From NCBI GenBank assembly GCA_044346175.1, contig JBIIZQ010000008.1, forward strand, positions 3,160-67,159: a stretch of DNA of 64,000 nt, in the 5' to 3' direction. The position numbers were made by a program, and so were the translations under genes. Of this stretch, positions 23,764 to 51,200 are shown piece by piece. The notes beneath the pieces are model-generated. The model ran no database searches. It was not told where the DNA came from and was given only the letters and a program-made list of their open reading frames with translations. This DNA is from Vampirovibrionales bacterium (GTDB lineage: Bacteria; Cyanobacteriota; Vampirovibrionia; Vampirovibrionales; JAJTHC01). Position 1 is the stretch's first letter; every line of letters begins with the position of its first letter.

Positions 23764-24333
23764 ATGATGCTGTGTGCTGCTACCACTTCAGAAAACCAAA
23801 AAGTGCTTGAGGCTCAAGAAATTCTGCCTTCACAGCTCATCGTGGTACCACAGGATACACAAGCTGAGGGTCAATTTTGGCATGTGCCTTCTTTGGCAAC
23901 AGGGCTGGTGGTAGTAGGGTTTACGCGCTTGCCACGGGTGATAGCCGTGGGGCATTTTACCTTGCCAGATAGTAAGCTTCTTGGTGAAAGTTTTTCAGAG
24001 CAGGAACCTGCCAAGTTTATTGACCTTGGGATTCCTCATTTGCTGGAACTGATTCAAAAACAACAGCAAGGGCTAACCCCCGAAGGACCCCATTCCCCCG
24101 TATTGTTCAAACTGATTGGAGGGTCGCAATTGTTCCAATTTGGTGGTGGGGCGGGTAATCCGCTCAATATCGGTACAAGGAATGCGATTGCGTCTCGTGC
24201 AACCCTTGGTAAGCTTGGGAAGATGGTGATTGCAGCCGATGTAGGCGGCAATAAAGCCCGTAAAGTCACCATTGAACCTGCCTCAGGTATCATTACGGTT
24301 GAGGAAATCGGCGGTCGTAAAATTACCCTATAA
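23764..24333 (+). CDS. cheD: CheD-like protein lacking the catalytic Cys
   Basis: GHFTLP, PAKF.D, KLIGG.Q.F, NIGTRN, A.DVGG..RKV motifs; the LGSCV motif is replaced by LATGL. Confidence 0.8.
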   Translation: MMLCAATTSENQKVLEAQEILPSQLIVVPQDTQAEGQFWHVPSLATGLVVVGFTRLPRVIAVGHFTLPDSKLLGESFSEQEPAKFIDLGIPHLLELIQKQQQGLTPEGPHSPVLFKLIGGSQLFQFGGGAGNPLNIGTRNAIASRATLGKLGKMVIAADVGGNKARKVTIEPASGIITVEEIGGRKITL

Positions 24334-25422
24334 GCCGTAAAGGGTTTTGGCAGCTTGTGCAAGCGTGGGGGCAGCATAGGTAATAATGCCTGTAGCACCT
24401 GCACGCCGCATGCCCACAGCCATTTCCCAATGAAGGGCAGGAGCATCCAACCAGCCACGTTCACCTGCGGCTTCCACCATGCTGTATTCTCCGCTTACAC
24501 TGTAGGCAATGATGGGGAGGTTGGTTTCTGTAGCCGCACATGCGATGAGGTCTAGGCAACTTAATGCTGGTTTTATAATCAGTGCATCGGCACCTTCTTC
24601 CACGTCGAGCGCAAGCTCTCGGGAGGCTTCTTTACGGTTGGCAAAGTCCATCTGGTACGTTTTTCGGTCGCCAAAGCTTGGGGCGGAACAGGCTGCATCT
24701 CGGAAAGGACCATAAAACGCCGAAGCATGTTTCACACTGTAACTGATAATGCCCACGTGAGGGAAGCCAGCCGTATCCAGAGCATGGCGTATCGCCGCAA
24801 CCCGTCCATCCATCATGTCAGAAGGGGCAACAAAATCGGCTCCTGCTTGGGCTTGAGCCACGGCGACCCGTCCGAGCTGCACCAGTGCGGCATCGTTATC
24901 AACGCTTTGGGTACTTTCACACAAAGGCCCACAATGCCCATGACGTGTGTAGCCACATAGGCATGTGTCAGCCCATAGGGTAATGTCATGTCCGAAGCGG
25001 GCTTTTAAGTGCCTAATTGCCTGCTGTACGCCCGCATTACCGTCGTAAGCATGGGTGCCAAGGTCATCTTTGTGTGCGTTATCCACTACGCCAAAAAGTA
25101 AAAAAGTACGAACCCCTAAGGCTTGCAGGCGTATTACTTCAGCTTCAAGGGAGGCAAGGGGGTACTGAAACACATGGGGCATACTTGCTACAGGGCTAGG
25201 ACTTGTAAGATGCGGTGCCACAAACAGCGGGTATACGAGATGCTGGGGTAGAAGGATGGTTTCAGACATAAAGGCCCGCATGGCTTGTGAACGGCGCCAT
25301 CGACGAGGACGTGCAATCAGTGTGGGCGTATCGTGCAAGTTGGGTAGGTTGGACATACCTGCCTGACAAGACACAGGAGAAACATCGCTGAATGGGGTAC
25401 TGTGCATAGGTAAGGTACTCAC
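24328..25422 (-). CDS. hemB: Porphobilinogen synthase
   Basis: RPRRWRR, DTCLCGYT.HGHCG (Zn type), APSDMMDGR, FYGPFRDA, IKPA, YSVSGEY. Confidence 0.96.
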   Translation of the reverse strand: MSTLPMHSTPFSDVSPVSCQAGMSNLPNLHDTPTLIARPRRWRRSQAMRAFMSETILLPQHLVYPLFVAPHLTSPSPVASMPHVFQYPLASLEAEVIRLQALGVRTFLLFGVVDNAHKDDLGTHAYDGNAGVQQAIRHLKARFGHDITLWADTCLCGYTRHGHCGPLCESTQSVDNDAALVQLGRVAVAQAQAGADFVAPSDMMDGRVAAIRHALDTAGFPHVGIISYSVKHASAFYGPFRDAACSAPSFGDRKTYQMDFANRKEASRELALDVEEGADALIIKPALSCLDLIACAATETNLPIIAYSVSGEYSMVEAAGERGWLDAPALHWEMAVGMRRAGATGIITYAAPTLAQAAKTLYGL

Positions 25423-25733
25423 TGAAAAAGTAGCGTGACGTAACGAGGAGGCTGGTATCTTTTAGGTTATAGTGTTAGAGGGGTAATGAGGCAAAGTCAA
25501 GCGTATTGATTCTGATACTACCATAAAGATAGTGTCCTCCATGAGACACGTGCTGCTCCTTTGGGGCAATTGCGTAAGGCTTCAAGGGTTTTGAAGACGA
25601 GTTTATGCTATACTTTGTAAGGTTAGCGGTCGTTATACGTTTCTAGTTTCTAGGCTTGCGTCCTAGTTTCTCACGACCCTCTTTTCCGTAAGCTTCGTTT
25701 GTATTACCGCTTAAAGCTCCCCTTTCACTCGCC

Positions 25734-26813
25734 ATGTTCAGCACGCCCTCTTCATCAGCTACCCAAGCATTAACACAGTCTCTTCAACCACAACGGTATT
25801 TTCAGGACCTCATTGCCTCCCTCAACCTGTACTGGGCAAACAAGGGCTGTGTCATTTTGCAACCTTACGACACTGAAAAAGGGGCTTCCACCATGAACCC
25901 CGCCACATTCCTGCGGGTGTTAGGGGAAGGGGCTTGGAACGTAGCGATGGTAGAACCTTGCAGAAGACCAACCGATGGGCGTTATGGTGAAAACCCTAAC
26001 CGTCTTCAGCACTACTTTCAGTATCAGGTGATTATGAAACCCGCACCAGCAACCATTCAACAGGACTACCTCGACAGCTTGGCCGTACTGGGTATTGACC
26101 CCTCCTTACACGACATTCGTTTTGTAGAGGATAATTGGGAATCCCCCACGCTAGGTGCTTGGGGTGTGGGCTGGGAAGTATGGTTGAATGGGATGGAAAT
26201 TACACAGTTTACCTATTTCCAGCAAGTGGGTGCTGTGGAAGTGGCACCTACTCCTGTTGAAATCACTTACGGATGCGAGCGTTTGGCGATGTATCTGCAG
26301 GGTGTAGACAGTGTGTATGATTTGCAATGGAACGCCACGATGACCTACGGCGAAGTATACCTCCGTAGTGAGATTGAACAGTCTCACTATAACTTTAGCT
26401 TTTCCTCACCTGAGCGTTTACGCACCATGTTTCAGTGTCACTATGATGAGGCGGATGCTCTTCTGAGCCAAGGAGAGGCTCTTGCAAACGCACTGACCAC
26501 AAAGACGACCACCCATGACAAAACTTCACACACGGAAGCTACTCGTAACGAGAGCTTGTCTGACGCTTTTGCTCATAAGACTTTTCCAGGTTTAGGTGCC
26601 ATCCCTGCTTTTGACCATACCCTAAAATGTTCGCACATGTTTAACCTATTAGATGCCCGTGGTGCGATTAGTAAAGATGAGCGGACGCAACTTATTTTAA
26701 CGATTCGTTCCTTGGCTGAAAGAGTCGCTAAACTGTATATTCAATCCCCCGCCGTGGTACAAGCCCAAACGCTTACAGATAAGCCTGTTGTGTCCTGCGT
26801 CACGATTGCTTAA
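25734..26813 (+). CDS. glyQ: Glycine-tRNA ligase alpha subunit, with an insertion of about 40 aa
   Basis: [63 protein letters not shown]. Confidence 0.96.
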
Positions 26814-26815
26814 AG

Positions 26816-27238
26816 ATGAATCTTTCCGAGGAAGCGATTTCTAAAATGTCAACGAGTACGCCTACTGTGAGTGAAAAGCCTCAAGGGAAACCTGCCCGTG
26901 GGGTGGGTCGTCCGAGAAGAAACCAACGCCATGACGAGCGGTCTTCACACTCATTTACCATGCGTCTTTCACCGAGTGAAATGGCTGATATTGAGACTTC
27001 TGCACGACTTGCTGGGATGACACGTTCGGAATTTATCCGTAGGCGTGTTTTGGGGCAGGACGTAAAGCCTCTCCAAGGGGCTGTGGAGTATCAATGGTTG
27101 CAAACACTCAAAGAACTCAAAACGATTTTAGCAACCGTCCCTGACCCAAGCCCTTGCCAAGAGACCCTGACCCTCGTCAATGACACCCTGAAGGCAACCT
27201 TGCAGCACTTGGCAAGCCAGAGTAAGCCTCTGGTGTAA
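26816..27238 (+). CDS. mobC: MobC/MbeC-like ribbon-helix-helix relaxosome accessory protein
   Basis: RS..FTMRLSPSE...I...A..AGMTRSEFIRRRVLG; lies directly before a relaxase. Confidence 0.8.
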   Translation: MNLSEEAISKMSTSTPTVSEKPQGKPARGVGRPRRNQRHDERSSHSFTMRLSPSEMADIETSARLAGMTRSEFIRRRVLGQDVKPLQGAVEYQWLQTLKELKTILATVPDPSPCQETLTLVNDTLKATLQHLASQSKPLV

Positions 27239-27279
27239 GTGTAGGGTGTGCCTATGGTAGATGCAAGGGAACCCTAAAA

Positions 27280-28689
27280 ATGATTATTCGTGTGGTTCGT
27301 GGGACAAGTTTTAAAGCCTGCTTGAAGTATTTACTTAAAAAGCCTCTTGCCAAGGTTCTCATGACGCACGGGCTTTTGGGAGAAACCCCTGAGGCTTGGT
27401 TATGGGAGTTTGAAGCAGAAGCCTATGACAGTACCAAGGTTATACTACCCGTGTATCACCTTGCCATTGCCTTGCATCCTCAGGATAATCCTAAAGCAAC
27501 CGACACCCTTTTTTGTGACCTTGCTCAAAGTATTGTGGAAGCCTTAGAGATTGCTCATCATCAATGGCTTTTAGTACGCCATTTTGATACCCCTCATGCC
27601 CATGTCCATTTAATGCTCAATCGGGTTTACCAAGGCAAAGCCACGTCACAGGAGTATGACCATACAAAACTCCAAGCCATTGCTAGAAACCTTGAAAATA
27701 CACATCAGTTGCAAGCACCCAAACACCGATTAACACCACAACAACTCAAACTTCCCAAAAAGTTCCAAACATCTGAAGGCTCTCAACCTCCAACGAAGCC
27801 TCCTGCACGTCAAACTTTAGGGCTAGGGGATGCCCTCCCCTCTTGGCAACCCTCCTGGAAGCCTTGGCAAAGGCTCCTGAAAGGGATTGCTTCTCAGCAG
27901 TATCAACAAGGGTGCCTGGGTTTTCCAAGTAAACTTGTACGTCCTGAAGCATTGAGTCAAGCCCTCATAGATGAGTTACAAAGTATGGTGCATCAACAGC
28001 TTTTGCCACTTTTGTACCAACAGTTATCCCCCCAACGCCTCCCTAATGCCATGGTACAGGCCTTGATGTACTGGATGCTTCAAGCACGTTTGCGAGGCTA
28101 TGCAACTTGGATTACTCGGGAAAAACAACAAGACAAAACGGTCCCTGATAGTGCTTGGCATGTGATGCACAATTTGGGTTGGCGACGAGATAGCCTTGCC
28201 AAGTTGTTGTGTCATACGATGCAATCTGACACTCAAAAAGCTGACACTGAAAAGGCTCTTCATGACACCCCTGAAAGCCTGTGGAAGATGACAACCACAC
28301 GTTTGGTAAGGTTACAGCATCGTGCGAGGAAAGCGGTTTTACCTCCTAAAAGACGTAAACCGTACATGATTGACTGGGGATTTCGGATTGGGCGTGCTGT
28401 GCATCGTTTCATGATGTTGGAAACCATGCGACATCAGCTAATACAGACCTCTCAAGAGGCTCGTCATGTCACAGCACCTCAGAGGCATGAGGCGGTTTTA
28501 CGACATTATCATCAAGCGATGCAACACGCTTATGGCCTGTGGGTGCATGGGGTGGTCTCAACGCAACATCCTTTGGTGGCTTGGGGAATGCCGATATGGT
28601 ACAAAACGCACTGGGGACAGCTCCCCGTGAGATACTGCTGGGCGATGCAACGCCTTATTGTAGAGGCTTGGCTGGCTCAGGTGTGTTAG
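27280..28689 (+). CDS. MOBP/VirD2-like HUH relaxase domain plus an unrecognised C-terminal region
   Basis: Motif I G.SF...LKYL; motif II VYHLAIALHP.D; motif III VRHFDTPHAHVHLMLNRV; LE..H.L domain end. Confidence 0.85.
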   Translation: MIIRVVRGTSFKACLKYLLKKPLAKVLMTHGLLGETPEAWLWEFEAEAYDSTKVILPVYHLAIALHPQDNPKATDTLFCDLAQSIVEALEIAHHQWLLVRHFDTPHAHVHLMLNRVYQGKATSQEYDHTKLQAIARNLENTHQLQAPKHRLTPQQLKLPKKFQTSEGSQPPTKPPARQTLGLGDALPSWQPSWKPWQRLLKGIASQQYQQGCLGFPSKLVRPEALSQALIDELQSMVHQQLLPLLYQQLSPQRLPNAMVQALMYWMLQARLRGYATWITREKQQDKTVPDSAWHVMHNLGWRRDSLAKLLCHTMQSDTQKADTEKALHDTPESLWKMTTTRLVRLQHRARKAVLPPKRRKPYMIDWGFRIGRAVHRFMMLETMRHQLIQTSQEARHVTAPQRHEAVLRHYHQAMQHAYGLWVHGVVSTQHPLVAWGMPIWYKTHWGQLPVRYCWAMQRLIVEAWLAQVC

Positions 28690-28700
28690 TGTGTTGCGTC

Positions 28701-30851
28701 TTAAGAGGGGTAGGTATGCACTTCCGTACGAGGCGTGGTTTTTAGGGCTACAGGGTCTGGTATACTGGCACTCAGGGCTTGGAATCGTTGCGTATCTTGC
28801 ACAGAAGGCAAAGACCTCGGGGTTTGGTTTACTTGATAACGTGCTTCATTGCAAAGTGTGTTTAACCTATGAGCCTCTTCTTCAAATCCAAGTTTACTGA
28901 GTAAAGCAAACCAAGCGGGACGAATCGTATGGTAGAGTGTGTTTTGCATCGCTTCAAATAAAGCACGTTGCCCTTTGATGTGGTTAAACAGGTCTTCTGT
29001 CGATTTTGGGGTCACCATGCCATACAGTTGCTGAAAATACATCATGGGGATACTTGCACAGTGGCTGATTAAAGGGTTGGCAGTGAGTGCTAAAAGTAAG
29101 TCCTGTGTCCCTTGTTGTATTGCTGGTAAGTGGGCGAGGAGGGTATCTCGGTTTGGTTGATGAAGCAGGGCATCGATTAAGTGCATTTGCTTTGTCAGTG
29201 TTTGGAGCATCTCCGATAACTGGTAAGCTTCCTTCACCAAACCCTCCATAAACCACGAAACACCTTGTGCTGAAGGGTGCTTTTCGGATGTGAAAAGAGG
29301 TTTTAAAGCTTGCTGTATCTGCTCATGAAGCGGTGGCATAGAAGCTGGGAGGTAGTGGTATGTTTCTTGATACAGTGGTAGCAAAGCTTGGGGTGTGAGG
29401 GTTGTATAGCCTTCCACCAAAGCCCCACCTACAGAGATATTCCAAGCAGCTTGCTGAGGATAAAAAGTACGGAGAAATTGTAATTCATCACGATATTGCT
29501 TGAAGTCGCTTGTTGTCCAGAGGGTCTCTTCAGGGGTTTGACCTTGTATTTTCAAAAGATGATGGGTATACCCTGAATGACTTTCGGTCGTGTGGAGGGT
29601 CAGTACGCCATTTTCAAGCACGTCCGCTTGAACCCCTCCCGCATACACTTGATTACCTTTCATGGCAAGGTCAATGCCCGCAAGCGTTACATGGCTACAC
29701 CCCATCCTAAAAGCAACTTCAGTGCTGACAACTGCCACCCCACCCCCACCAATATGTTGCACGAGTCCAAGAGGTTGATGCTCGGGGTGATAATGTTTTG
29801 CCAAGTACTCTAAAAATTGGGCGACGAACTCATTGTTTTTTGCACAGTAGAGCAGGGCATGATTTTGAGGTGCAAGGGTGAATGTTTCTGGTGGTGCAAA
29901 GCCAGGTACAATCAACGTAATGCCTTCAAGATAGCCTTCTGGTAAACCAAAAAACTGTTCCTTGGCACTGACGGGGTCATAGAAAAAGGCAAAATGAGGC
30001 TTGATACCGTATTCAGAAAGTCGACGTAGTGCGCCACCCACGGCAAGTAAAACGGTTTGACCCTCTTCCGCTAAGCATTTTAGGGTAGGGAGGGCATCAT
30101 CTAAGGAAGGCCCCCTCCCAATCACCACTGCAGGCCGATGCTTAAACAGTGCATGGAAAGCTTCAAGATGGTACCACTGAGGGTAAATGGCAAGGTTTTC
30201 TAAAAGATTAAGCACCTGTAGGTCATGACGGGCATAAAAAGTATTTAAACCCAATTGTGCCTCTTTTTTGAAGTCATCAATCCATGTACTGATGCGTTCA
30301 TGTTTCTCGGGCGACCAAAGTTTTTGGTAACCTTCTCCTGCGTACAGAACATCCATGCGTTCAGGGAAAAGGGTCTGTTTGGCAAATCTGGCACGGATAC
30401 CATCTAACGTATGTACGAGTGAGACATGAGCGTGCTTAAATAGCCCTGTAAAATTCACCTCGCTCAATAAAAATTTAAGCAATGGCAAATTATCTTCATA
30501 AATCACAATCTGCCCTGTCGTTTCACGTGCAGCGAGCTGAGCCAAAAACCCCATCCCAAAACCCAGAATAATATGCGTTGACACCTTTCCTCGTGGGGTG
30601 TGGGTTTGTTTCCAGAGCATTTTAGCCTCTTGATGTCCACCTGTCATGGCCTGAAGAGGGATACCGTTTAGGCATAACGTGATACCTCCGTCTTGGGTTT
30701 CTTGTACTTGCCAAGCGTCTTCGGTCAATGCTTCACAGTTACATATTGCCTCAATGAGGGCTTCGTGCCGAGTGTCAAAAAGCTGTAGGGCATGGAGGTT
30801 TTGAGCAAGAAAGGTCATCATCACAGTGGGCGGATACTCCTGCAATAGCAT
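28701..30851 (-). CDS. Motility-associated factor (Maf/DUF115, MptE-like) flagellin glycosyltransferase family protein
   Basis: ILGFGMG, PAVVIGRGPSLD, L...GIKPHF, GG.V......AFRMGC..V.L.GIDLA, N.S.GGA.VEG. Confidence 0.85.
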   Translation of the reverse strand: MLLQEYPPTVMMTFLAQNLHALQLFDTRHEALIEAICNCEALTEDAWQVQETQDGGITLCLNGIPLQAMTGGHQEAKMLWKQTHTPRGKVSTHIILGFGMGFLAQLAARETTGQIVIYEDNLPLLKFLLSEVNFTGLFKHAHVSLVHTLDGIRARFAKQTLFPERMDVLYAGEGYQKLWSPEKHERISTWIDDFKKEAQLGLNTFYARHDLQVLNLLENLAIYPQWYHLEAFHALFKHRPAVVIGRGPSLDDALPTLKCLAEEGQTVLLAVGGALRRLSEYGIKPHFAFFYDPVSAKEQFFGLPEGYLEGITLIVPGFAPPETFTLAPQNHALLYCAKNNEFVAQFLEYLAKHYHPEHQPLGLVQHIGGGGVAVVSTEVAFRMGCSHVTLAGIDLAMKGNQVYAGGVQADVLENGVLTLHTTESHSGYTHHLLKIQGQTPEETLWTTSDFKQYRDELQFLRTFYPQQAAWNISVGGALVEGYTTLTPQALLPLYQETYHYLPASMPPLHEQIQQALKPLFTSEKHPSAQGVSWFMEGLVKEAYQLSEMLQTLTKQMHLIDALLHQPNRDTLLAHLPAIQQGTQDLLLALTANPLISHCASIPMMYFQQLYGMVTPKSTEDLFNHIKGQRALFEAMQNTLYHTIRPAWFALLSKLGFEEEAHRLNTLCNEARYQVNQTPRSLPSVQDTQRFQALSASIPDPVALKTTPRTEVHTYPS

Positions 30852-31175
30852 CGAAAGACAATCAAAGGACTTTGGTACTCACAGTGTAGAGGATATGCTT
30901 TAGGGTCGTGACGGTGTAGGATAAAACTTCAGTTCCTTATAGGAGCAAGACATAAAACCCAGATGCCTCATCTCAAGAGACCCCAAGGTATGAATACTTT
31001 GTAGCCACACGACAAAAAAACAAACAACCTATCACGTCTAAAATATCCCTATCGTGCTAGGTACTTTTACAGTGTCATTCTTTGATGATACGCTTTCTGA
31101 TATGCGAAAAACAGAATCTGAGATTTTAAGTCTGGTGTTATAGAAAAAAACGAAAAAATTGACATTGTATCCCAT

Positions 31176-32477
31176 ATGTTTACTACTACGACCCTTACGC
31201 CCCTAGTCAACACCTTGCGTCTTAAAAAACAGGATAAAGCTTCAAAGGGTACTTTCAACACTGAAACGCAACACTCATGGAGGGATGCTGATTTTTCAAA
31301 TAGAAGCAACTTTACAGTAAAACCATTCACACATCAGGCAAGTAGCTTTCTATCTTCTCCTATTCAGGTTCAGACTTCATCTACCCTGAAACATAAGCCA
31401 GCTTACCCGTCCCGTTTTGGGGAAATTATCATTGCACCAAACACACGTATCATTCATACTATGCCCATGCAGGATATTCATAAGCTTTTTGGGCATTTGA
31501 ATGAACTTTCAAAAAAATATCAGTTTGCCGCACCGCATCTTACAGGAGGCTTTGCATTGAGTTGGCTAGAAGCACTCAAGCAACAACGTTCTGACATTAA
31601 GGTAAGAGACCTAGATATCCTCCTCTGGATGCAGAAAGGCAAACAGAACGAAAATGTCTCTTGGCGTGACGCATTTGTAGCCTTTACAAACGATTTAAAA
31701 CAACGTTTAGAAACAGACCTTAAGATACCCTTCGAGGTCATTCCTAAGCCCGATTCAGAAAAAAATTACCCCACACCAAGAGCCATCCGTGTGATTGTGC
31801 CTAAAAATAGAGAAGAAAGGTCAAAGTATCCTATACTGGACCTCTTTATGGCACCTTCTCAAGCAAGCGTTGCATTGGCGGATACACTTACCAACAAACA
31901 TGCTTTACGATTCCCCTTAACCCCTCATACCTCACAGGAGGGCATCCATCGTTTACTTAAGGACTACGAGACCCCTGTCACGATGATGAAAAACGCATCG
32001 ACATTTGAAACACCCCATAAACCAGACCGATTGATTTTTAAAATGGCAACCCTTCAAAGCAAGCTGCCTCAAACTATCGACACCTCTCAAGTGCGGTCTC
32101 TTATCGACCAAGTTTCTCAATTAAGCGTGACCCCAGAACCTACCATTAAAAAACAGGGGGAAGTCCTCCGCCGAACCTTACGTTTATTGTTTGTGCCACA
32201 CCCTGAGGCTGCTTTCAATATGATGCAACGTAGTCAGCTCCTTTCCAAATGCCTGCCGCATACGCCCTTAAACAATAAGCTTGTGGCTTACACGCTCTTA
32301 GAAAACTTTAAAAAGATAGGTAGTGAGCCTATTTCGGATGCAGCAAAACTTCAAAAAGCTGTTAAACACCTTGAAGAAACCCTAACATCGGCAGGAGATG
32401 GACTCATTGAAGAGGCTCTTAAGCAACTACAGGTTGCATACATACACTCACCAAAACCCTCTGTCCCCTCTGCTTGA
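31176..32477 (+). CDS. Divergent class II nucleotidyltransferase (CCA-adding/poly(A) polymerase-like) with an 80-aa low-complexity leader ending in RFG
   Basis: HLTGG...VRDLDILL (GG plus DxD), ILDL third-Asp strand, and body motif EVLR..LRLL..PHP..AF.MM....LL.K.LP. RRD and EDxxR motifs are degenerate. Confidence 0.6.
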   Translation: MFTTTTLTPLVNTLRLKKQDKASKGTFNTETQHSWRDADFSNRSNFTVKPFTHQASSFLSSPIQVQTSSTLKHKPAYPSRFGEIIIAPNTRIIHTMPMQDIHKLFGHLNELSKKYQFAAPHLTGGFALSWLEALKQQRSDIKVRDLDILLWMQKGKQNENVSWRDAFVAFTNDLKQRLETDLKIPFEVIPKPDSEKNYPTPRAIRVIVPKNREERSKYPILDLFMAPSQASVALADTLTNKHALRFPLTPHTSQEGIHRLLKDYETPVTMMKNASTFETPHKPDRLIFKMATLQSKLPQTIDTSQVRSLIDQVSQLSVTPEPTIKKQGEVLRRTLRLLFVPHPEAAFNMMQRSQLLSKCLPHTPLNNKLVAYTLLENFKKIGSEPISDAAKLQKAVKHLEETLTSAGDGLIEEALKQLQVAYIHSPKPSVPSA

Positions 32478-32611: not shown

Positions 32612-33547
32612 TTGGTTATTCACATTACACACCCTACTGATTTCCCTCCCTCCTTTCTTGAAGCCTATCGTCAAGGCAAGCTCGTTTTTTTCTGTGGTGC
32701 TGGCATCTCGAATTATGGTAGTGCATTGCCTGCTTATTATGCTTCGTTTAAAGCCTTGGTTAGGGCTGTGCTTGACTGCTTTGACCCTTCTTGGGAATCA
32801 AATATTCACACGCTAAAGTATCAGTTATATGAGAAATATAAATATGACGAATTACTTGAGAACTTAGATGAGGATTACGGGCGTGATGGAATTCACAGCC
32901 ATATTAAATCCCTGTTTCAAAATAGACTGCCAATAGATTTGCAATTAAATCACCATAGTATTCTGTTAAATTTGGCAAGACCAACCCAAAATCAAGGGTT
33001 CGTACAGCTAGTCACTACCAATTTTGATACTTGCTTCAGTATGGCAAGTGGCAATGAACGTATTAAAGAGTTCTATGCCCCTCTACTACCTATCCCTAGA
33101 GGTGAGATGAATTACCCTCATGCAATTACCTATTTACATGGCAATGTGTCAGACCCGATGTTGGAAAACAATCTTATATATAGTAGTTCTGATTTTGGGA
33201 AAGCTTATATTAGTGATGGCTATGCTGCCCGCTTTATCAGCGAACTAACCAAAAACTATACGATATGCTTTATCGGTTATAGTGTAAATGACCCCATCAT
33301 GCGCTACACTCTGTCTGGTGTTAAAGCAGTCAAAAGAGAAACAGCTGAAGCTCATACTCCAGAAATATTCACACTTACTTCTTTCAGTGATAACTCCTTG
33401 GAGCGTCGTCAAGAAAGAGAAGCACTCGAATTATTAGGATTGAGTGTCCTAGAATTTGAAAACTACCCTGCCATGTGGCATTGTTTGGAAACATGGTACA
33501 CCTACCAAACACAAGATATATTTGAGTTAGCACGGGCAAATTTCTAA
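32612..33547 (+). CDS. SIR2-like NADase domain; N-terminal part of a Dsr1-like defence sirtuin
   Basis: GKLVFFCGAGIS, LVTTNFD, YLHG, SSSDFGKAY...GYAARFISEL..NYTICFIGYSVNDP.MRY; TTG start. Confidence 0.88.
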   Translation: MVIHITHPTDFPPSFLEAYRQGKLVFFCGAGISNYGSALPAYYASFKALVRAVLDCFDPSWESNIHTLKYQLYEKYKYDELLENLDEDYGRDGIHSHIKSLFQNRLPIDLQLNHHSILLNLARPTQNQGFVQLVTTNFDTCFSMASGNERIKEFYAPLLPIPRGEMNYPHAITYLHGNVSDPMLENNLIYSSSDFGKAYISDGYAARFISELTKNYTICFIGYSVNDPIMRYTLSGVKAVKRETAEAHTPEIFTLTSFSDNSLERRQEREALELLGLSVLEFENYPAMWHCLETWYTYQTQDIFELARANF

Positions 33548-33592
33548 CTTTGTCTAATCAATCGTTTTTACGCTAGTATCAGAAAAAAAACT

Positions 33593-36529
33593 ATGTATAA
33601 CGAACTATTTAATCCAACCTCTAAACAATACTTTGTATTAAAAAACCTTATTCCCAACCCTGATACCTACCTACAATATCCTTTCTATCCTCATTGGGAT
33701 AAGCTGCCGTTTGGACTCCTTAAAGCCGTCCAGAAGGTGCATATCATGCAAACCACACCTAAAGAAAAGCGTCAATCGGATGAGCTTGAACTCTACACAA
33801 AAATAGAGGCGTTGCCAAACCTAATTTTGCCTGACTACAAACCCCATCAGTCGACAGGTTCTATTTATGGTCATTTTATTGGGGAGCGTCATAAACCCCT
33901 CCACCCTATTACAAGGGGCTGGGTGTTCCTTATCGGAAAACATATCCATGACCCTGAAGTGTTCCAGTGGCTTATCACCCAAAGTAATGTATTACATCCA
34001 GCGTTAGAGGATGAGATAGCAAGGGCATTAGCTCATGACAAGACATTTACGATGGATGAGGGTTTAAGGGAAGCTTGGCGAGTACTGCTGTTAAAGCAAA
34101 CGTGGGATAGCAAACCACGGTATTGTCCTAATTTTGACGACGCAAGTGAAGAAGCTGATGAGCTTAAACTTTGGTTGAGAGACATACTCAAACCTCGCAT
34201 TGTAATACGACCACCTCATGATTATGAAAAGCTATCCAGTAAAAAATTTCCTTCATACCGTGTTGAGCTTATTTTTTTGCATGATGATATTGAACAATAT
34301 CGACTTTCTCAATGGATGCAAAAGAATACACCTGTCTTTTGGTACAACCTTTTTGAAGCTATTGAGCATAGCTTAAAGCAGTATATTGAACTTACTAAGG
34401 AAATCACTCCAAAAGAAGATACCTTGAGCTTTATCCTTGAAGTTGCTTCCATCATTGACCATAAGCAAAACCTTGGATTTAGTAACTTGGTAAGTCTATT
34501 TAATCATCTTGAAGCTTGCTTTGAGGCTTTAATCCAGCATGATGAAGGCACAAAGTGGTGTGCTGATGCGTTAGAACGCTTTGCAAGTAAGCCTGAAGCC
34601 CTTTGGTATCGTATCGTATTAGCGTATGTCACAAAATATCCTGATGTATTGAACCCATCCCTTGCTTGGCAGGTTTTAAGAGCCAATGGTTATAGTGTGA
34701 TTCAACACATGGGGAGCATGATTCGGAAGGAGTTTTTTGATTTACTTGAGAGTAAACACAAAAACCTATCACTACCCAACGATATTTTAGAAGCGATTTA
34801 TACCCAAATTCGTGCCTCTACAGCCACTAAATATGGCAATATCAACTGGCATCCTGATAGAAATTATAAGGTATTAGAGACTCTCAAAAACAACCATGCC
34901 TTGCTTCCTCCCGATTTAGACGCACTCTATAGTCAATATAAAGAGGCGTTCAAGACTGACCGTGAAGCCGACGATAGTCACAAATTTCCTATATATTTAA
35001 GCCCACTAAGCTTTGGAGACATCAGCAAATTGCCTGAAGATGAAGAAGCGATTTTTAAGCGTTTTCGGAAAGCAGACTCTTTTAAGGTCTGTGGTGAACT
35101 GGCATCATACACCGAAAAATATCCTCAAAAAGGAGTTAAGGTTTTTATTGCCTTACTGATGGAAGCCTTCTTTATAAGTTTGTGCTATTTCGATAAGGCA
35201 CTCACCAAAACCCTGTGTTATGGTGATATGCTGTTGCTACCTTGGCATATCCATAGATTTGAGTTCTACTGTGGGGAACTCGCCATGTACTTACGCCGAG
35301 GATTAAGCGGTGTTCAACTCCAAGAAAGACAAATAGCAAACTATGAAACCCAACTTAAAGAAAATGCCTTAACCCTGTTACCCCTGTATGAAACGTTATG
35401 GGCGTTGCAACTGAAAGATATCGCACACTCCACGAGTGGCTATATCAGGCATTATTGTTCCATACTATCGCAAGAAGAACCTCACAGATTTTGGGCTTTA
35501 TTTGATAAAGCTTGGCAAGCTTCTGAAGAACTCCCCGAGCCTAACATTGGCAAAGGTTTTTATGATGACAATTTTAACGCAACAATCAATCAATGTATTG
35601 GGAAACTTCTTGAAGCCTTACTATCATTAGAATTGGATAGGTATCGGTCAGGTGAATCTCAAGAGCAAGTATCCTTTCAACTGAGTGAAAAAACAAAAAG
35701 CTACTTAGAGGCATTTATACAACGAGATAAGGCAGCATATGCTTATAGTATGCTAGGTGCGTACTTGCCTCTTTTATTTCAAGTTCATCGAGCATGGGCA
35801 GAAGCACATCTACTGCCACTTATAACCCAACAAGAGCAAAGAAGCTTCCCAAAATCCAAAGCATTGGTTGAAGGGATTGTAGGTTACGGTAAGCAAAGCT
35901 ATGATTTAGAGAAATATCTTCAAACCGCTTGGTTAAATTTGGATACCAAGGCTTACTTTAGCACCAATGCAGATATGCTGAAGAGACATATCGGCAAGTT
36001 AATGAGTCTTTATTTTTACGATGAAGGTGACAATACCATGACGCCGATAGAGTATCATAAGTCGCTGAAAGCCATGCCTACCGAAAGCTTAAATACAGTT
36101 GCTTGGTGTCTTCGCCAAGTTAATGAACTCACTGAAACTTCTTTCAATAGGGTGGAAGATTTTTTCAAGATTGCTTGGCCTAAAGAGCTTAATAAGCTAG
36201 ATGCCCAGCAAACGACCTATTTTATTATGTTTGCCATGCAATACCCAAAGCACTTTAGGCGTATCATTAACCTACTCAAAGAGGAAAACCTCATCATGCA
36301 GTACGAAGAAAGAGGTGTCATTCTTCTTCCTTACGAGGACAAAGAAGGTAAAAAGCTTCAAGCACTATCTGATGAGGACTTTACACTACTCTGTGAGGTT
36401 CTGTGTCAACATCTACCTGTAACGGCGAAAAATACAGACTATTTTTTAACGGAGTTAAAAGTATACTTGGAAAAGAAAGCATGCCCGATGCCTGAATGCT
36501 TACAGGGCTATTTTGCACAGTTTGCTTAG
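33593..36529 (+). CDS. Large helical protein matching the C-terminal part of Dsr1-like sirtuins
   Basis: Same frame as the SIR2 ORF. Motifs recalled from Dsr1: H..DP....W.......LH, LR.ILKP, SI..H.QN.GF...V.L, IN...G...EALL, LF.V.RAW.E.HLLPL, WPK. Confidence 0.75.
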   Translation: MYNELFNPTSKQYFVLKNLIPNPDTYLQYPFYPHWDKLPFGLLKAVQKVHIMQTTPKEKRQSDELELYTKIEALPNLILPDYKPHQSTGSIYGHFIGERHKPLHPITRGWVFLIGKHIHDPEVFQWLITQSNVLHPALEDEIARALAHDKTFTMDEGLREAWRVLLLKQTWDSKPRYCPNFDDASEEADELKLWLRDILKPRIVIRPPHDYEKLSSKKFPSYRVELIFLHDDIEQYRLSQWMQKNTPVFWYNLFEAIEHSLKQYIELTKEITPKEDTLSFILEVASIIDHKQNLGFSNLVSLFNHLEACFEALIQHDEGTKWCADALERFASKPEALWYRIVLAYVTKYPDVLNPSLAWQVLRANGYSVIQHMGSMIRKEFFDLLESKHKNLSLPNDILEAIYTQIRASTATKYGNINWHPDRNYKVLETLKNNHALLPPDLDALYSQYKEAFKTDREADDSHKFPIYLSPLSFGDISKLPEDEEAIFKRFRKADSFKVCGELASYTEKYPQKGVKVFIALLMEAFFISLCYFDKALTKTLCYGDMLLLPWHIHRFEFYCGELAMYLRRGLSGVQLQERQIANYETQLKENALTLLPLYETLWALQLKDIAHSTSGYIRHYCSILSQEEPHRFWALFDKAWQASEELPEPNIGKGFYDDNFNATINQCIGKLLEALLSLELDRYRSGESQEQVSFQLSEKTKSYLEAFIQRDKAAYAYSMLGAYLPLLFQVHRAWAEAHLLPLITQQEQRSFPKSKALVEGIVGYGKQSYDLEKYLQTAWLNLDTKAYFSTNADMLKRHIGKLMSLYFYDEGDNTMTPIEYHKSLKAMPTESLNTVAWCLRQVNELTETSFNRVEDFFKIAWPKELNKLDAQQTTYFIMFAMQYPKHFRRIINLLKEENLIMQYEERGVILLPYEDKEGKKLQALSDEDFTLLCEVLCQHLPVTAKNTDYFLTELKVYLEKKACPMPECLQGYFAQFA

Positions 36530-49061: not shown

Positions 49062-51200
49062 ATGCTCATTGGCTTGGCTTTAAGAAATTACAAAACCTAC
49101 CAAAATATTAACTTCATACCTGTTGTATCTCAGTTAGATACATCTTTCACTGCATATGTTGGTGCAAATGGCATTGGTAAAAGCTCAATTTTGGAAGCGT
49201 TAGATAGCTACTTCAATGATAGACCTTGGAATATTAACAGAGCATGGCATAAGAGTTCAAAGAAAGATGTAATCCCTTTCATTGCCCCTTTATTGTTGAT
49301 AAATAAGGAAGACCCTCTTTTTGATTTTAACGATAATGAGAAGAAATTTTTAGATGCTTTGAGTGATATTTTGTGGAATCGTGATGCTCATCATTCATGG
49401 AATGATTTTATAGCATATGTAAAAAAAATAAAAGAGAGCGTTTGTAAAGAAAATAAAAAAATTGAAGATTATTGGTTACTTATGATACCCATCTCAAGAA
49501 ATGCAAATGGATCTATCGATGTAGATTTTTTTAACACTGCCAAAGATATACACCAGGGATTAGAGAACACCGCCAAAGATATAGACCAGGGATTAGAAGA
49601 GGGCATCGAAAAATCCGATTCGAAATTTGATTTTGATAGTAATAGTAAGAGTAAGAGTGTTTTGAAGAAACTCAAAGAAAAAGTTCATTACATCTATCTT
49701 CCCGTTGAAGCGGATGAGAAGGAGCTTACTCAACTTACAACGGTGGGTATTCAAAAACTTATTAAAACTGATTTGCCTACTAAAATAAAAAAGCTTTTGG
49801 ATGAGAAAAAATTTGACAAGCAAAGTATTTTAGACCTTGTAAACCGAGATATTGCTAGTTTTATGGATAGTATTAAAGAAAACTTGAGTGATGGTTATAC
49901 ATATTCTGCTGGAAAAGGAAAGCCTAGCAAATTAACATCGAGTAAGCTAGTAGATACTATCATTGAAAAATCACTTCTTTCTAATCCGATACGTTATGAA
50001 AAAAAGTTAAAAAATGGCGAGGACACATCACTTGAATTTGAACAAATGAGTGCAGGAGAAAAAAGAAAAGCACTTATAGAAGTTTATTCATCTCTTTTGG
50101 CTATGCCTGTTGACCAAGAATCTCAGTCTAACTCTAAAATCATTATTGGTATTGATGAACCAGAAGCTTCTTTACATATGAGTGCTTGTTATTCGCAATT
50201 TGAAAAGCTCTTTCAGATGTCTAAGGATGCTCAAATACTTTTAACAACTCATTGGTATGGATTTCTACCTGTTATTCAAAAAGGTCAGGTACATTTTTTG
50301 TCTAAAAAAGATACTGCTGAAGAGGGAACAAAGTTTAAATCAGTTATGGCTTTTCATACACACTCTTTAGAGAGTTTTGCAGAAAGTATTAGACAAATAA
50401 ATGGTAAAGAAGTATTTGAGTATAGCTTGAAAAGCTATACTGATTTACGGCAATCTATTTTATGTTCACTTTTAGAAGAGGAGGGTAAGTATTACAACTG
50501 GGTGATATGTGAGGGGACAAGTGATAAAATATACTTGGATACTTTTTTTGAGGCTATGTTTCCAAAAAATAATGTAAAAGTTCTGCCTGTTGGAGGTATA
50601 GATAATGTTTTGAAAAAAATGTATACTCCATTGTGTTATGAAATAAAATTAAATAAAGACCATCCTGATTTAAAAGGCAAAGTATTTTGTCTTGTTGATA
50701 CTGATGAGAATGCTTCGTCAACGTCTGAAAATAGCCCACAGGCTTTTCAGTCTAAAAATATTTTTATGAAAAAAATATTTGTTACCTCAGACCAAAATTC
50801 AGATGCCATTGTTAAATTGGAGGATATTTTCAAACCATTAAATGGTGTCACGGTGATAGAGGATGCATTGAATCCACAGGTGTTTATTAAAACAATTGAA
50901 GCAATGGACGAATTTAAAGATTTTGTGCCAAAATTCAAAGACAAAGACAATGACTTAAATAAGGATGCTCAAGCATCTAGGCATGCTTTTAACTTAAGAC
51001 CTGCCGATTATAAATTGTTTAAAGATATCCTGTTCGATAAAACTAACGATTCAATTAAAGTAAAGTTTGCGAAAAAATACTGTGAAATTGCTAAAGAGTG
51101 TACAGACACGCCTTGGCCTGATTGGATGAATCAAATAGCTGGTGCAAATTTTTTAAACTTAAACTCAAGCTCAAAACTCAAAGAACCATCTCCTGTATAA
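49062..51200 (+). CDS. AT-rich ABC-type ATPase fused to TOPRIM (OLD-like), probable anti-phage nuclease
   Basis: LRNYK, GANGIGKSSILEA, MSAGE, IDEPEASLH, LTTH; TOPRIM CEG.SD, PVGG, LVDTD; IED. Visibly more AT-rich than flanks. Confidence 0.8.
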   Translation: MLIGLALRNYKTYQNINFIPVVSQLDTSFTAYVGANGIGKSSILEALDSYFNDRPWNINRAWHKSSKKDVIPFIAPLLLINKEDPLFDFNDNEKKFLDALSDILWNRDAHHSWNDFIAYVKKIKESVCKENKKIEDYWLLMIPISRNANGSIDVDFFNTAKDIHQGLENTAKDIDQGLEEGIEKSDSKFDFDSNSKSKSVLKKLKEKVHYIYLPVEADEKELTQLTTVGIQKLIKTDLPTKIKKLLDEKKFDKQSILDLVNRDIASFMDSIKENLSDGYTYSAGKGKPSKLTSSKLVDTIIEKSLLSNPIRYEKKLKNGEDTSLEFEQMSAGEKRKALIEVYSSLLAMPVDQESQSNSKIIIGIDEPEASLHMSACYSQFEKLFQMSKDAQILLTTHWYGFLPVIQKGQVHFLSKKDTAEEGTKFKSVMAFHTHSLESFAESIRQINGKEVFEYSLKSYTDLRQSILCSLLEEEGKYYNWVICEGTSDKIYLDTFFEAMFPKNNVKVLPVGGIDNVLKKMYTPLCYEIKLNKDHPDLKGKVFCLVDTDENASSTSENSPQAFQSKNIFMKKIFVTSDQNSDAIVKLEDIFKPLNGVTVIEDALNPQVFIKTIEAMDEFKDFVPKFKDKDNDLNKDAQASRHAFNLRPADYKLFKDILFDKTNDSIKVKFAKKYCEIAKECTDTPWPDWMNQIAGANFLNLNSSSKLKEPSPV
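49533..49598 (+). repeat. 33-bp in-frame tandem duplication (NTAKDIHQGLE / NTAKDIDQGLE)
   Basis: Two copies differing at 3 nt. Confidence 0.9.

Follow-up and report, generated by a model that had tools for sequence, protein, structure and literature searches.

The locus described here raises the question of what a conjugative relaxase gene, together with the gene of the accessory protein that precedes it, is doing immediately behind glyQ in the chromosome of an uncultured bacterium of the Vampirovibrionales. The window (the whole stretch of 64,000 nucleotides that was analysed, G000:C2:3160-67159) comes from a draft genome of 2.31 Mb in 39 contigs which is 94% complete (G000), and its closest relative is the only other species of the genus (G001), which is also represented by a 94% complete draft metagenome assembly but was assembled independently. 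Our answer, drawn from comparison of the sequences, is that the pair has very probably been kept by vertical descent and by selection in a catalytically competent state, and that it is neither a live nor a dying mobile element. The whole reading, in which the host keeps the pair as a relaxosome module and uses it independently of a type IV secretion system (T4SS), is tentative and in our judgement comes a little short of an even chance.

Three genes lie head to tail on the forward strand, glyQ (25734-26813), a gene encoding a ribbon-helix-helix (RHH) protein (26816-27238) and the relaxase gene (27280-28689). The ATG of the RHH gene at 26816 follows the glyQ stop codon (26811-26813) after 2 nt, the relaxase ATG at 27280 follows the RHH stop (27236-27238) after 41 nt, and the relaxase stop (28687-28689) is separated by 11 nt from the stop (28701-28703) of a convergent gene of 716 codons; these open reading frames (ORFs) and junctions agree exactly with those given in an earlier account made from the window's letters alone (here called the sequence-only reading). 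With one strand, short spacers and no terminator-like forward-strand site between the genes, this is an operon-type layout. The sequence-only reading had also described the surroundings as lacking integrase, rep and coupling protein genes and the composition as host-like, and both descriptions were borne out, as none of those genes was found among the 42 window ORFs scanned with family profiles, the GC content of the relaxase gene is 0.480 compared to 0.462 for the genome, and among 1348 long ORFs its codon-usage score ranks at the 56th percentile.

Judged by domain, catalytic residues and fold, the 469-amino-acid protein is a MobA/VirD2-type (MOBP-like) HUH relaxase. It matched PF03432 at 73.8 bits (cut-off 24.6, E = 2.1e-20) over residues 17-144, and the catalytic domain comprises residues 1-160 (27280-27759). 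The putative catalytic tyrosine, Tyr17, is encoded at 27328-27330 and the histidine motif, H101-H110, at 27580-27609. In an alignment of 46 sequences Y17, H60, H101, H108 and H110 were invariant and D103, H106, N114 and R115 nearly so, in keeping with the earlier claim of an intact catalytic tyrosine and HUH motif, and the catalytic residues are identical in G001 and in two more distant proteins (P0003 and P0152). An AlphaFold2 model had a mean predicted local distance difference test score (pLDDT) of 77.8, mostly above 90 over residues 1-150, and the top 24 rows of a Foldseek search of the PDB were all relaxase domains (2ns6, which is MobA of R1162, 4ht4, which is NES, and also TraI, TrwC and MobM) with probabilities of 0.77-1.00, although the best E value, 3.8e-3, was modest. 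The best NCBIfam match, the TraI/MobA(P) equivalog NF041893, scored 67.9 bits of the 250 needed, and over residues 47-154 only, and thus the protein is better described as a relative of this family than as its equivalog.

Behind the catalytic domain there is a predicted disordered linker (residues 164-193, 27769-27858, pLDDT below 50), and in residues 161-195 only 12 of the 28 aligned residues are identical to those of G001. The remainder (residues 196-469, 27865-28686) is modelled as an all-helical, tryptophan-rich domain to which no family could be assigned. The sequence-only reading had called the C-terminus unrecognised and rich in W, H and Q, and we agree, since the C-terminal 309 residues gave no Pfam family (best E = 0.17) and are enriched over the proteome in W (3.1-fold), Q (1.8-fold) and H (1.6-fold). 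Conserved blocks of this domain include PKRRKPYMIDWGFRIGRA and a Trp-rich block near residues 420-446. Folded alone it again gave a helical model (pLDDT 67.7). An Atlas search returned nothing above 0.82 (bar 0.9); a fold assignment was also sought with VIA-align against 48,161 chains and rejected, as the best match (Z = 9.2) was to generic helical hairpins, under the bar of about 13 for helical proteins. As a separate observation, a low-depth contig from the plankton sample X3 lacks 2+1+2+1 nt at 28243-28259, in the variable middle part of the relaxase gene; the total of 6 nt keeps the frame.

The 140-amino-acid protein encoded upstream is a NikA-like RHH relaxosome accessory protein, matching PF21983 over residues 44-103 (26945-27124; E = 6.6e-11, 42.6 bits compared to a cut-off of 27), with a conserved basic, GRP-containing stretch preceding the RHH domain. 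The RHH_1 model matched weakly, as did the MobA, MbpA and TraJ models of NCBIfam. It had earlier been named mobC, a name which we have not kept, because Pfam MobC (PF05713) gave no match at E <= 0.01 and MobC_2 (PF19514) reached only 16.5 bits, under its cut-off of 27.5. The gene has an alternative start at 26846, and the N-terminal 35 residues are variable between the two species of the genus.

The same three genes occur in the same order in G001, encoding a GlyQ of 340, an RHH protein of 146 and a relaxase of 449 amino acids with spacers of 20 and 14 nt, but their surroundings differ, with guanylate kinase (gmk) upstream and a convergent ftsH downstream where G000 has hemB and the Maf-like convergent gene. 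On the 20-kb contig of G001 15 of the 16 ORFs were matched in G000, and these are spread over six G000 contigs; local synteny is therefore heavily scrambled, and yet the trio has stayed together. The suggestion that this gene order might be shared across related genomes thus holds for the only congener, despite the changed flanks. In six other neighbourhoods inspected in the family no RHH or relaxase gene lay beside glyQ.

Sequence divergence between the two species, estimated by the method of Nei and Gojobori, gave pS and pN values of 0.82 and 0.13 for glyQ, 0.83 and 0.22 for the RHH gene, and 0.68 and 0.26 for the relaxase gene. For the relaxase dN/dS was 0.18 overall, 0.09 in the catalytic domain (in which 132 of 160 residues, 82.5%, are identical) and 0.20-0.23 in the remainder, figures which are rough as dS is saturated but which lie far from the value near 1 that had been named as telling against selection. 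Both the RHH and relaxase genes are thus, from these substitution patterns, under purifying selection at saturated synonymous divergence. The relaxases are 60%, the RHH proteins 75% and the GlyQ proteins 85% identical, compared to 45-86% (median about 73%) for 12 neighbouring orthologues, and the relaxase catalytic domain comes near GlyQ and exceeds that median. The whole-protein identities of the pair fall inside this range, as vertical descent would predict and recent transfer would not. Contigs from other studies' lake and plankton metagenomes show this arrangement of the genes over both junctions (X2, 26354-27395; X3, 26667-27091 and 27086-27991), and population single-nucleotide polymorphisms (SNPs) from other lake samples comprised 8 synonymous and 5 non-synonymous changes in the relaxase gene among the 27 of 36 SNPs listed. 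As far as comparative analysis can go, this demonstrates that since its fixation the pair has been inherited vertically and kept intact in the host chromosome by purifying selection.

Outside the genus the pair is rare. A full-length relaxase orthologue was found in G001 only among 61 relatives, and in G000 and G001 only among 401 genomes of the class, nine others of which had short, weak matches to other relaxases; the RHH-relaxase pair was found neither in 17 other genomes of the family nor in 399 other genomes of the class. A word-index search with the relaxase returned only itself and the G001 protein. When 1.84e9 representative proteins were searched with a profile, 2354 matched at E <= 1e-3, of which only P0002 and P0003 were below 1e-30, and beyond the lineage homology was limited to the N-terminal 160 residues. 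Among species-representative genomes identity outside the lineage reached 40% at best, across residues 8-133, and the matching genomes include Rubrivirga, further Rhodothermales and Gemmatimonadales. None of the 150 matching plasmids in PLSDB covered 80% of the relaxase; identities were at most 33% among the matches listed, with cyanobacterial plasmids among the top rows. Together with the retention of the trio in the congener, the purifying selection and a divergence within the range of host genes, these distant, N-terminal-only homologues uphold the earlier view that this is neither a recent mobile element nor a decaying one.

By origin the pair is a MOBP-like mobile element, since three of the relatives elsewhere are found in ordinary mobile contexts. 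The best catalytic matches, from Rubrivirga and other Rhodothermales (L041 and L042, 38-40% identity over residues 8-133), lie with a type IV coupling protein (T4CP), TrbI and a resolvase, in L041 with a NikA-like protein as well, while no NikA-like gene was found among the ORFs scanned in L042; a relaxase on a plasmid-like contig of Xenococcus (L049, 28% identity over residues 1-202) lies with a NikA-like protein, an integrase and ParA. In L041 and L049 the NikA-like gene precedes the relaxase gene, as in the window. None of the three relaxases shares anything with the C-terminal domain of the window protein, and those of L041 and L042 carry a TraI_middle domain, as does that of L043, where no other conjugation gene was seen among the ORFs scanned.

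A third, deeper branch may carry the pair's relaxase as well. The P0003 relaxase (378 amino acids, E = 3e-46) is 35% identical to the window protein, P0152, from a JGI contig of 21,802 nt, is 82% identical to P0003, and both share the catalytic domain and, in part, the conserved C-terminal positions. The third-closest GlyQ in a collection of 5.8 billion proteins (P0156, 74-76% identity) shares the N-terminal extension of the window GlyQ and has a shorter form of its insertion. P0003 and P0156 both come from Logan, with a longest contig of 27,733 nt for each, and from the equality of these two figures alone relaxase and glyQ are probably on one contig in this sister lineage; two metagenome scans and one viral scan yielded no contig for P0003 or P0152.

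We propose that the pair is a relaxosome module of plasmid or integrative and conjugative element (ICE) origin, made up of a NikA-like RHH protein and an HUH relaxase of the MobA/VirD2 type that carries a helical C-terminal domain of its own, and that it was fixed immediately behind glyQ in an ancestor shared by what is now a small group of uncultured freshwater Vampirovibrionales. Its expression would come by read-through from glyQ or from a promoter within the glyQ 3' end, and as the pair would be inseparable from glyQ by either route, this could account for the survival of the trio through rearrangement on both sides. The sequence-only reading had held that there is no room for a promoter; this is right for the intergenic DNA, but a weak sigma-70-like candidate does lie inside the 3' end of glyQ (26712-26741, forward strand, 9 of 12 hexamer positions). 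Promoter-like sites in the region are at chance level (5 compared to 3.8 +/- 2.3 expected), while the -10 hexamer of this candidate and the next 15 nt are identical to G001 at 20 of 21 positions. From what is known of the two families, the RHH protein would bind a specific DNA site and the relaxase would use Tyr17 and a metal bound at the histidine motif to cut one strand, stay covalently on the 5' end, and be able to rejoin it.

The weakest step in this proposal is that the nick would serve the host without a T4SS, by site-specific processing of single-stranded DNA at a chromosomal target. We favour such a role because both independent bins lack all of the T4SS markers and the window has no integrase, because the TraI_middle domain of the nearest relatives has been replaced, and because a chromosomal oriT (origin of transfer) that does not excise would give little selfish gain over so long a time. 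In its most specific form, the proposal would make this the first case of a relaxase turned into a host enzyme that needs no T4SS, an RHH-guided HUH nickase with a chromosomal target and a cellular task, for example in replication, repair or genome maintenance, in place of transfer, tied to glyQ through the history of the lineage; this is possible but, in our estimate, unlikely. A search of the full-text literature found no paper on an orphan relaxase, and a domesticated relaxase appeared in no title among the matches listed, although a printed report may still exist.

Several points weigh against a host role of this kind. To our knowledge no relaxase has been shown to serve its host independently of a T4SS. 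The one RNA run (X20, contigs) has a single 249-nt contig inside glyQ and says nothing on transcription of the RHH and relaxase genes, and the constitutive co-expression with glyQ put forward in the sequence-only reading finds no support in it. The full genomic context is seen in two genomes only, the third lineage being known by its equal contig figures with no contig seen, and the saturation of dS leaves the dN/dS values rough. No oriT or nic target site was found near the locus by alignment, inverted-repeat, motif or synonymous-site analysis. When the non-coding DNA of the two species was aligned upstream of the trio, between its genes and downstream of it, no shared inverted repeat was seen, and an inverted-repeat scan of 25300-28900 gave two short pairs, both in coding DNA, with none of oriT type in the hemB-glyQ intergenic region. 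A 6-nt MOBP nick-core motif occurred 32 times in the window compared to 28.2 +/- 5.4 expected, and was uninformative upstream of the relatives' genes. The synonymous-site scan showed no unusually conserved stretch, the longest exact run being 21 nt in a Trp-rich coding block, and Rfam had no match in 24000-31500. Finally, both genomes are draft bins and plasmids and ICEs often go unbinned, which limits the T4SS absence to the bins; in V. chlorellavorus, plasmids carry two of the three T4SS operons (PMC4451040), and for these two reasons the absence of a T4SS from the organisms is not established.

The last point leads directly to the strong rival, that of a chromosomal relaxosome acting in trans. 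Here the relaxase would nick an oriT-like chromosomal site, and the DNA or the relaxase itself would be piloted through the T4SS of an unbinned plasmid or ICE, with Hfr-like chromosome transfer as the outcome, or else the passage of DNA or protein into a second cell, which may be algal prey. We think this improbable on balance, though it is the alternative that we take most seriously. All characterised relaxases act with a T4SS, and 15 of the 49 genomes searched in the order have a T4CP above cut-off, three of them in the same family (G009, G016 and G007). The plasmid location of T4SS operons in V. chlorellavorus points the same way, as does the abundance of solitary chromosomal relaxases, since a survey of 1,124 genomes counts 402 chromosomal relaxases without a neighbouring T4SS and reads them as mobilised in trans (Guglielmini et al. 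2011, PMC3158045). Against this, T4CP (PF02534, PF12696) and VirB4-type (PF03135, PF12846) models gave no match in either of the two independently assembled, 94% complete genomes, where no TrbI relative was found either; one 19-bit match to PF10412, below cut-off, occurred in G001 only. The same searches succeed in relatives, where VirB4 (PF03135) was found in 6 of the 49 genomes of the order, all in another family (f3). When 48 long ORFs from ten relatives' conjugation loci were compared to G000 by tblastn only the relaxases matched the window relaxase, and the remaining matches were to a DNA methylase and a tyrosine recombinase. The sequence-only reading had pointed to action through the organism's own T4SS and to a search for VirD4 and VirB elsewhere in the genome; the search came back empty for both species, and that form of the idea is not sustained. 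Neither the negative search for an oriT at the locus nor the failure to detect, in the window relaxase, the TraI_middle domain of its nearest outside relatives fits easily with action in trans, and a non-excising chromosomal oriT would presumably be under weak selection over the time that synonymous sites take to saturate.

One further feature of the protein bears on transfer. A basic stretch, PKRRKP, at residues 356-361 (28345-28362), does not differ between the two species of the genus and is absent from P0003 and P0152. We take it to resemble the monopartite nuclear-localisation or T4SS-type basic signals of VirD2-type proteins, and its conservation within the genus counts in favour of action in trans. 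The more specific idea that the relaxase, as a VirD2-like pilot protein, brings DNA into eukaryotic prey with PKRRKP as its nuclear-targeting signal seems to us very improbable.

A second rival would dispense with descent altogether, supposing a minimal mobile unit, driven by the relaxase, with the glyQ 3' end as its specific insertion site, in which case the shared position would reflect target choice. Some relaxases, TrwC among them, catalyse site-specific integration, the position is the same in two and perhaps three species with no integrase present, and about 21 nt at the end of glyQ are well conserved. However, the pair has diverged between species as far as host genes have, with synonymous sites saturated, its codon usage is host-like, neither G000 nor G001 has a second copy, and the pair was found neither in 17 other glyQ-bearing genomes of the family nor behind glyQ in the six neighbourhoods inspected, all of which makes such a unit very unlikely. 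The sole flanking repeat, a 15-nt direct repeat matching at 14 of 15 positions that brackets the pair at 26638 and 28859, was considered as a possible att site and rejected, as about one such is expected per 8 kb by estimate and the flanks differ in G001; other direct repeats were likewise short two-copy matches at chance level, in agreement with the earlier statement that att repeats are lacking. An integrative mobilisable element (IME) was rejected on the same repeat and flank evidence together with the lack of a recombinase among the window ORFs.

A third possibility, that the two genes form a regulatory or toxin-antitoxin-like addiction module in which the RHH protein represses or neutralises the nuclease, would suit a compact gene pair with the RHH gene first, and the RHH protein does match VapB and RelB models weakly (E = 1.4e-4 and 4.8e-3, far below cut-offs). 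Its best match is NikA-like and above cut-off, though, RHH-then-relaxase is the normal relaxosome order in relatives, and no PADLOC defence family matches either protein. We know of no relaxase that acts as a toxin, and we consider such a module most unlikely. Least tenable is a neutral, not yet decayed remnant of an integrated mobilisable or conjugative element, which comes close to being refuted: the nearest outside relatives do lie with a T4CP, TrbI, resolvase or integrase and none of these partners is in the window, but both genes are intact in two species with synonymous sites saturated and pN far below pS, the catalytic residues are invariant, the population SNPs lean synonymous, and the single set of indels sums to 6 nt, in frame.

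Set beside known systems, the host-kept relaxosome module that we prefer is closest to MOBP relaxosomes such as TraI-TraJ of RP4, NikB-NikA of R64 and VirD2-VirD1 of Ti, in which likewise an RHH gene stands directly upstream of a MobA/VirD2-type relaxase with an N-terminal catalytic tyrosine, a histidine motif and the relaxase fold. It differs from them in that no oriT was seen upstream, no T4CP or T4SS was found and there is no plasmid or ICE backbone, in its C-terminal domain, which is unrelated to TraI_middle, and in being chromosomal, fixed behind glyQ and vertically inherited. REP-associated tyrosine transposases offer a second parallel, as there too an HUH single-strand nuclease has turned into a vertically inherited host gene, but they are of another HUH class, and the window locus has no linked family of repeated hairpins (the region's 14-mers never exceed 3 copies in the genome). 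The chromosomal relaxases read as IMEs (PMC3158045) are, like that of the pair, solitary and without a nearby T4SS; IMEs, though, have an integrase or excisionase and a patchy distribution among strains, whereas the window pair has no recombinase, one fixed locus and host-paced divergence.

Elsewhere in G000, outside the region, 18-mers with 37, 33 and 29 copies were seen, none of them related to the locus; the first has an end like that of a CRISPR repeat, and the three families are, by their sequence, probably CRISPR arrays. In G001 the relaxase gene and the convergent ftsH are separated by a strong GC-rich hairpin resembling a two-way terminator (L011:6181-6267), where G000 has only 11 nt and no hairpin.

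The glyQ gene itself encodes a glycine--tRNA ligase alpha subunit of 359 amino acids (PF02091, E = 6.1e-131; NF006827, 436 bits compared to a cut-off of 369). It is present in all 18 other genomes of the family, and glyS is not adjacent to it but placed on G000:C17. GlyQ has a lineage-specific insertion of about 48 amino acids in its C-terminal helical part (residues 241-289, 26454-26600) as well as an N-terminal extension (residues 1-22), neither of which occurs in other genomes of the family; the insertion is shorter and poorly conserved in G001 and shorter still in P0156. The insertion and the relaxase pair co-occur.

Upstream, the divergent hemB is separated from glyQ by an intergenic region of 311 nt (25423-25733) which likely holds the glyQ promoter and leader and has about 20 nt (25656-25675) in common with G001, while the RHH-relaxase spacer (27239-27279, 41 nt) is not conserved, having 14 nt in G001. 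The downstream boundary is the convergent gene of 716 amino acids on the reverse strand (28701-30851), for which a Maf/MptE-like assignment appears reasonable from its match to PF01973 (E = 6e-22) and a weak match to PseD; it lies outside the conserved block. Further along, 32612-36529 holds a split Dsr1-like defence gene in a stretch of lower GC (about 0.40), with a 311-amino-acid SIR2 protein corresponding to the first 254 positions of Dsr1 (E = 6.8e-46) and a 978-amino-acid protein corresponding to its C-terminal part (E = 1.4e-15). A 712-amino-acid AriA/OLD-type AAA_15 ATPase (49062-51200; PADLOC AriA, E = 4.6e-23), lying in an island of low GC (0.32 compared to 0.46 for the genome), is probably an acquired defence gene, going by homology and composition.

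Relaxases are taken as markers of mobile DNA, and solitary chromosomal ones are routinely scored as mobilisable elements or as debris. What is unusual about the present pair, compared to other solitary chromosomal relaxases, is that it behaves like core genes, being fixed behind an essential gene, diverging at the pace of its host and under strong selection in the catalytic domain with no transfer machine in sight. Should it prove to act independently of a T4SS, conjugation enzymes would have been exapted in a new way, the mirror of the relaxase-less chromosomal T4SS already described, and this would call for caution before chromosomal relaxases are all counted as mobile elements. If an unseen plasmid T4SS is its partner instead, the pair would point to long-lived chromosome mobilisation, or to the delivery of DNA or protein, in a lineage with an algal predator among its relatives.

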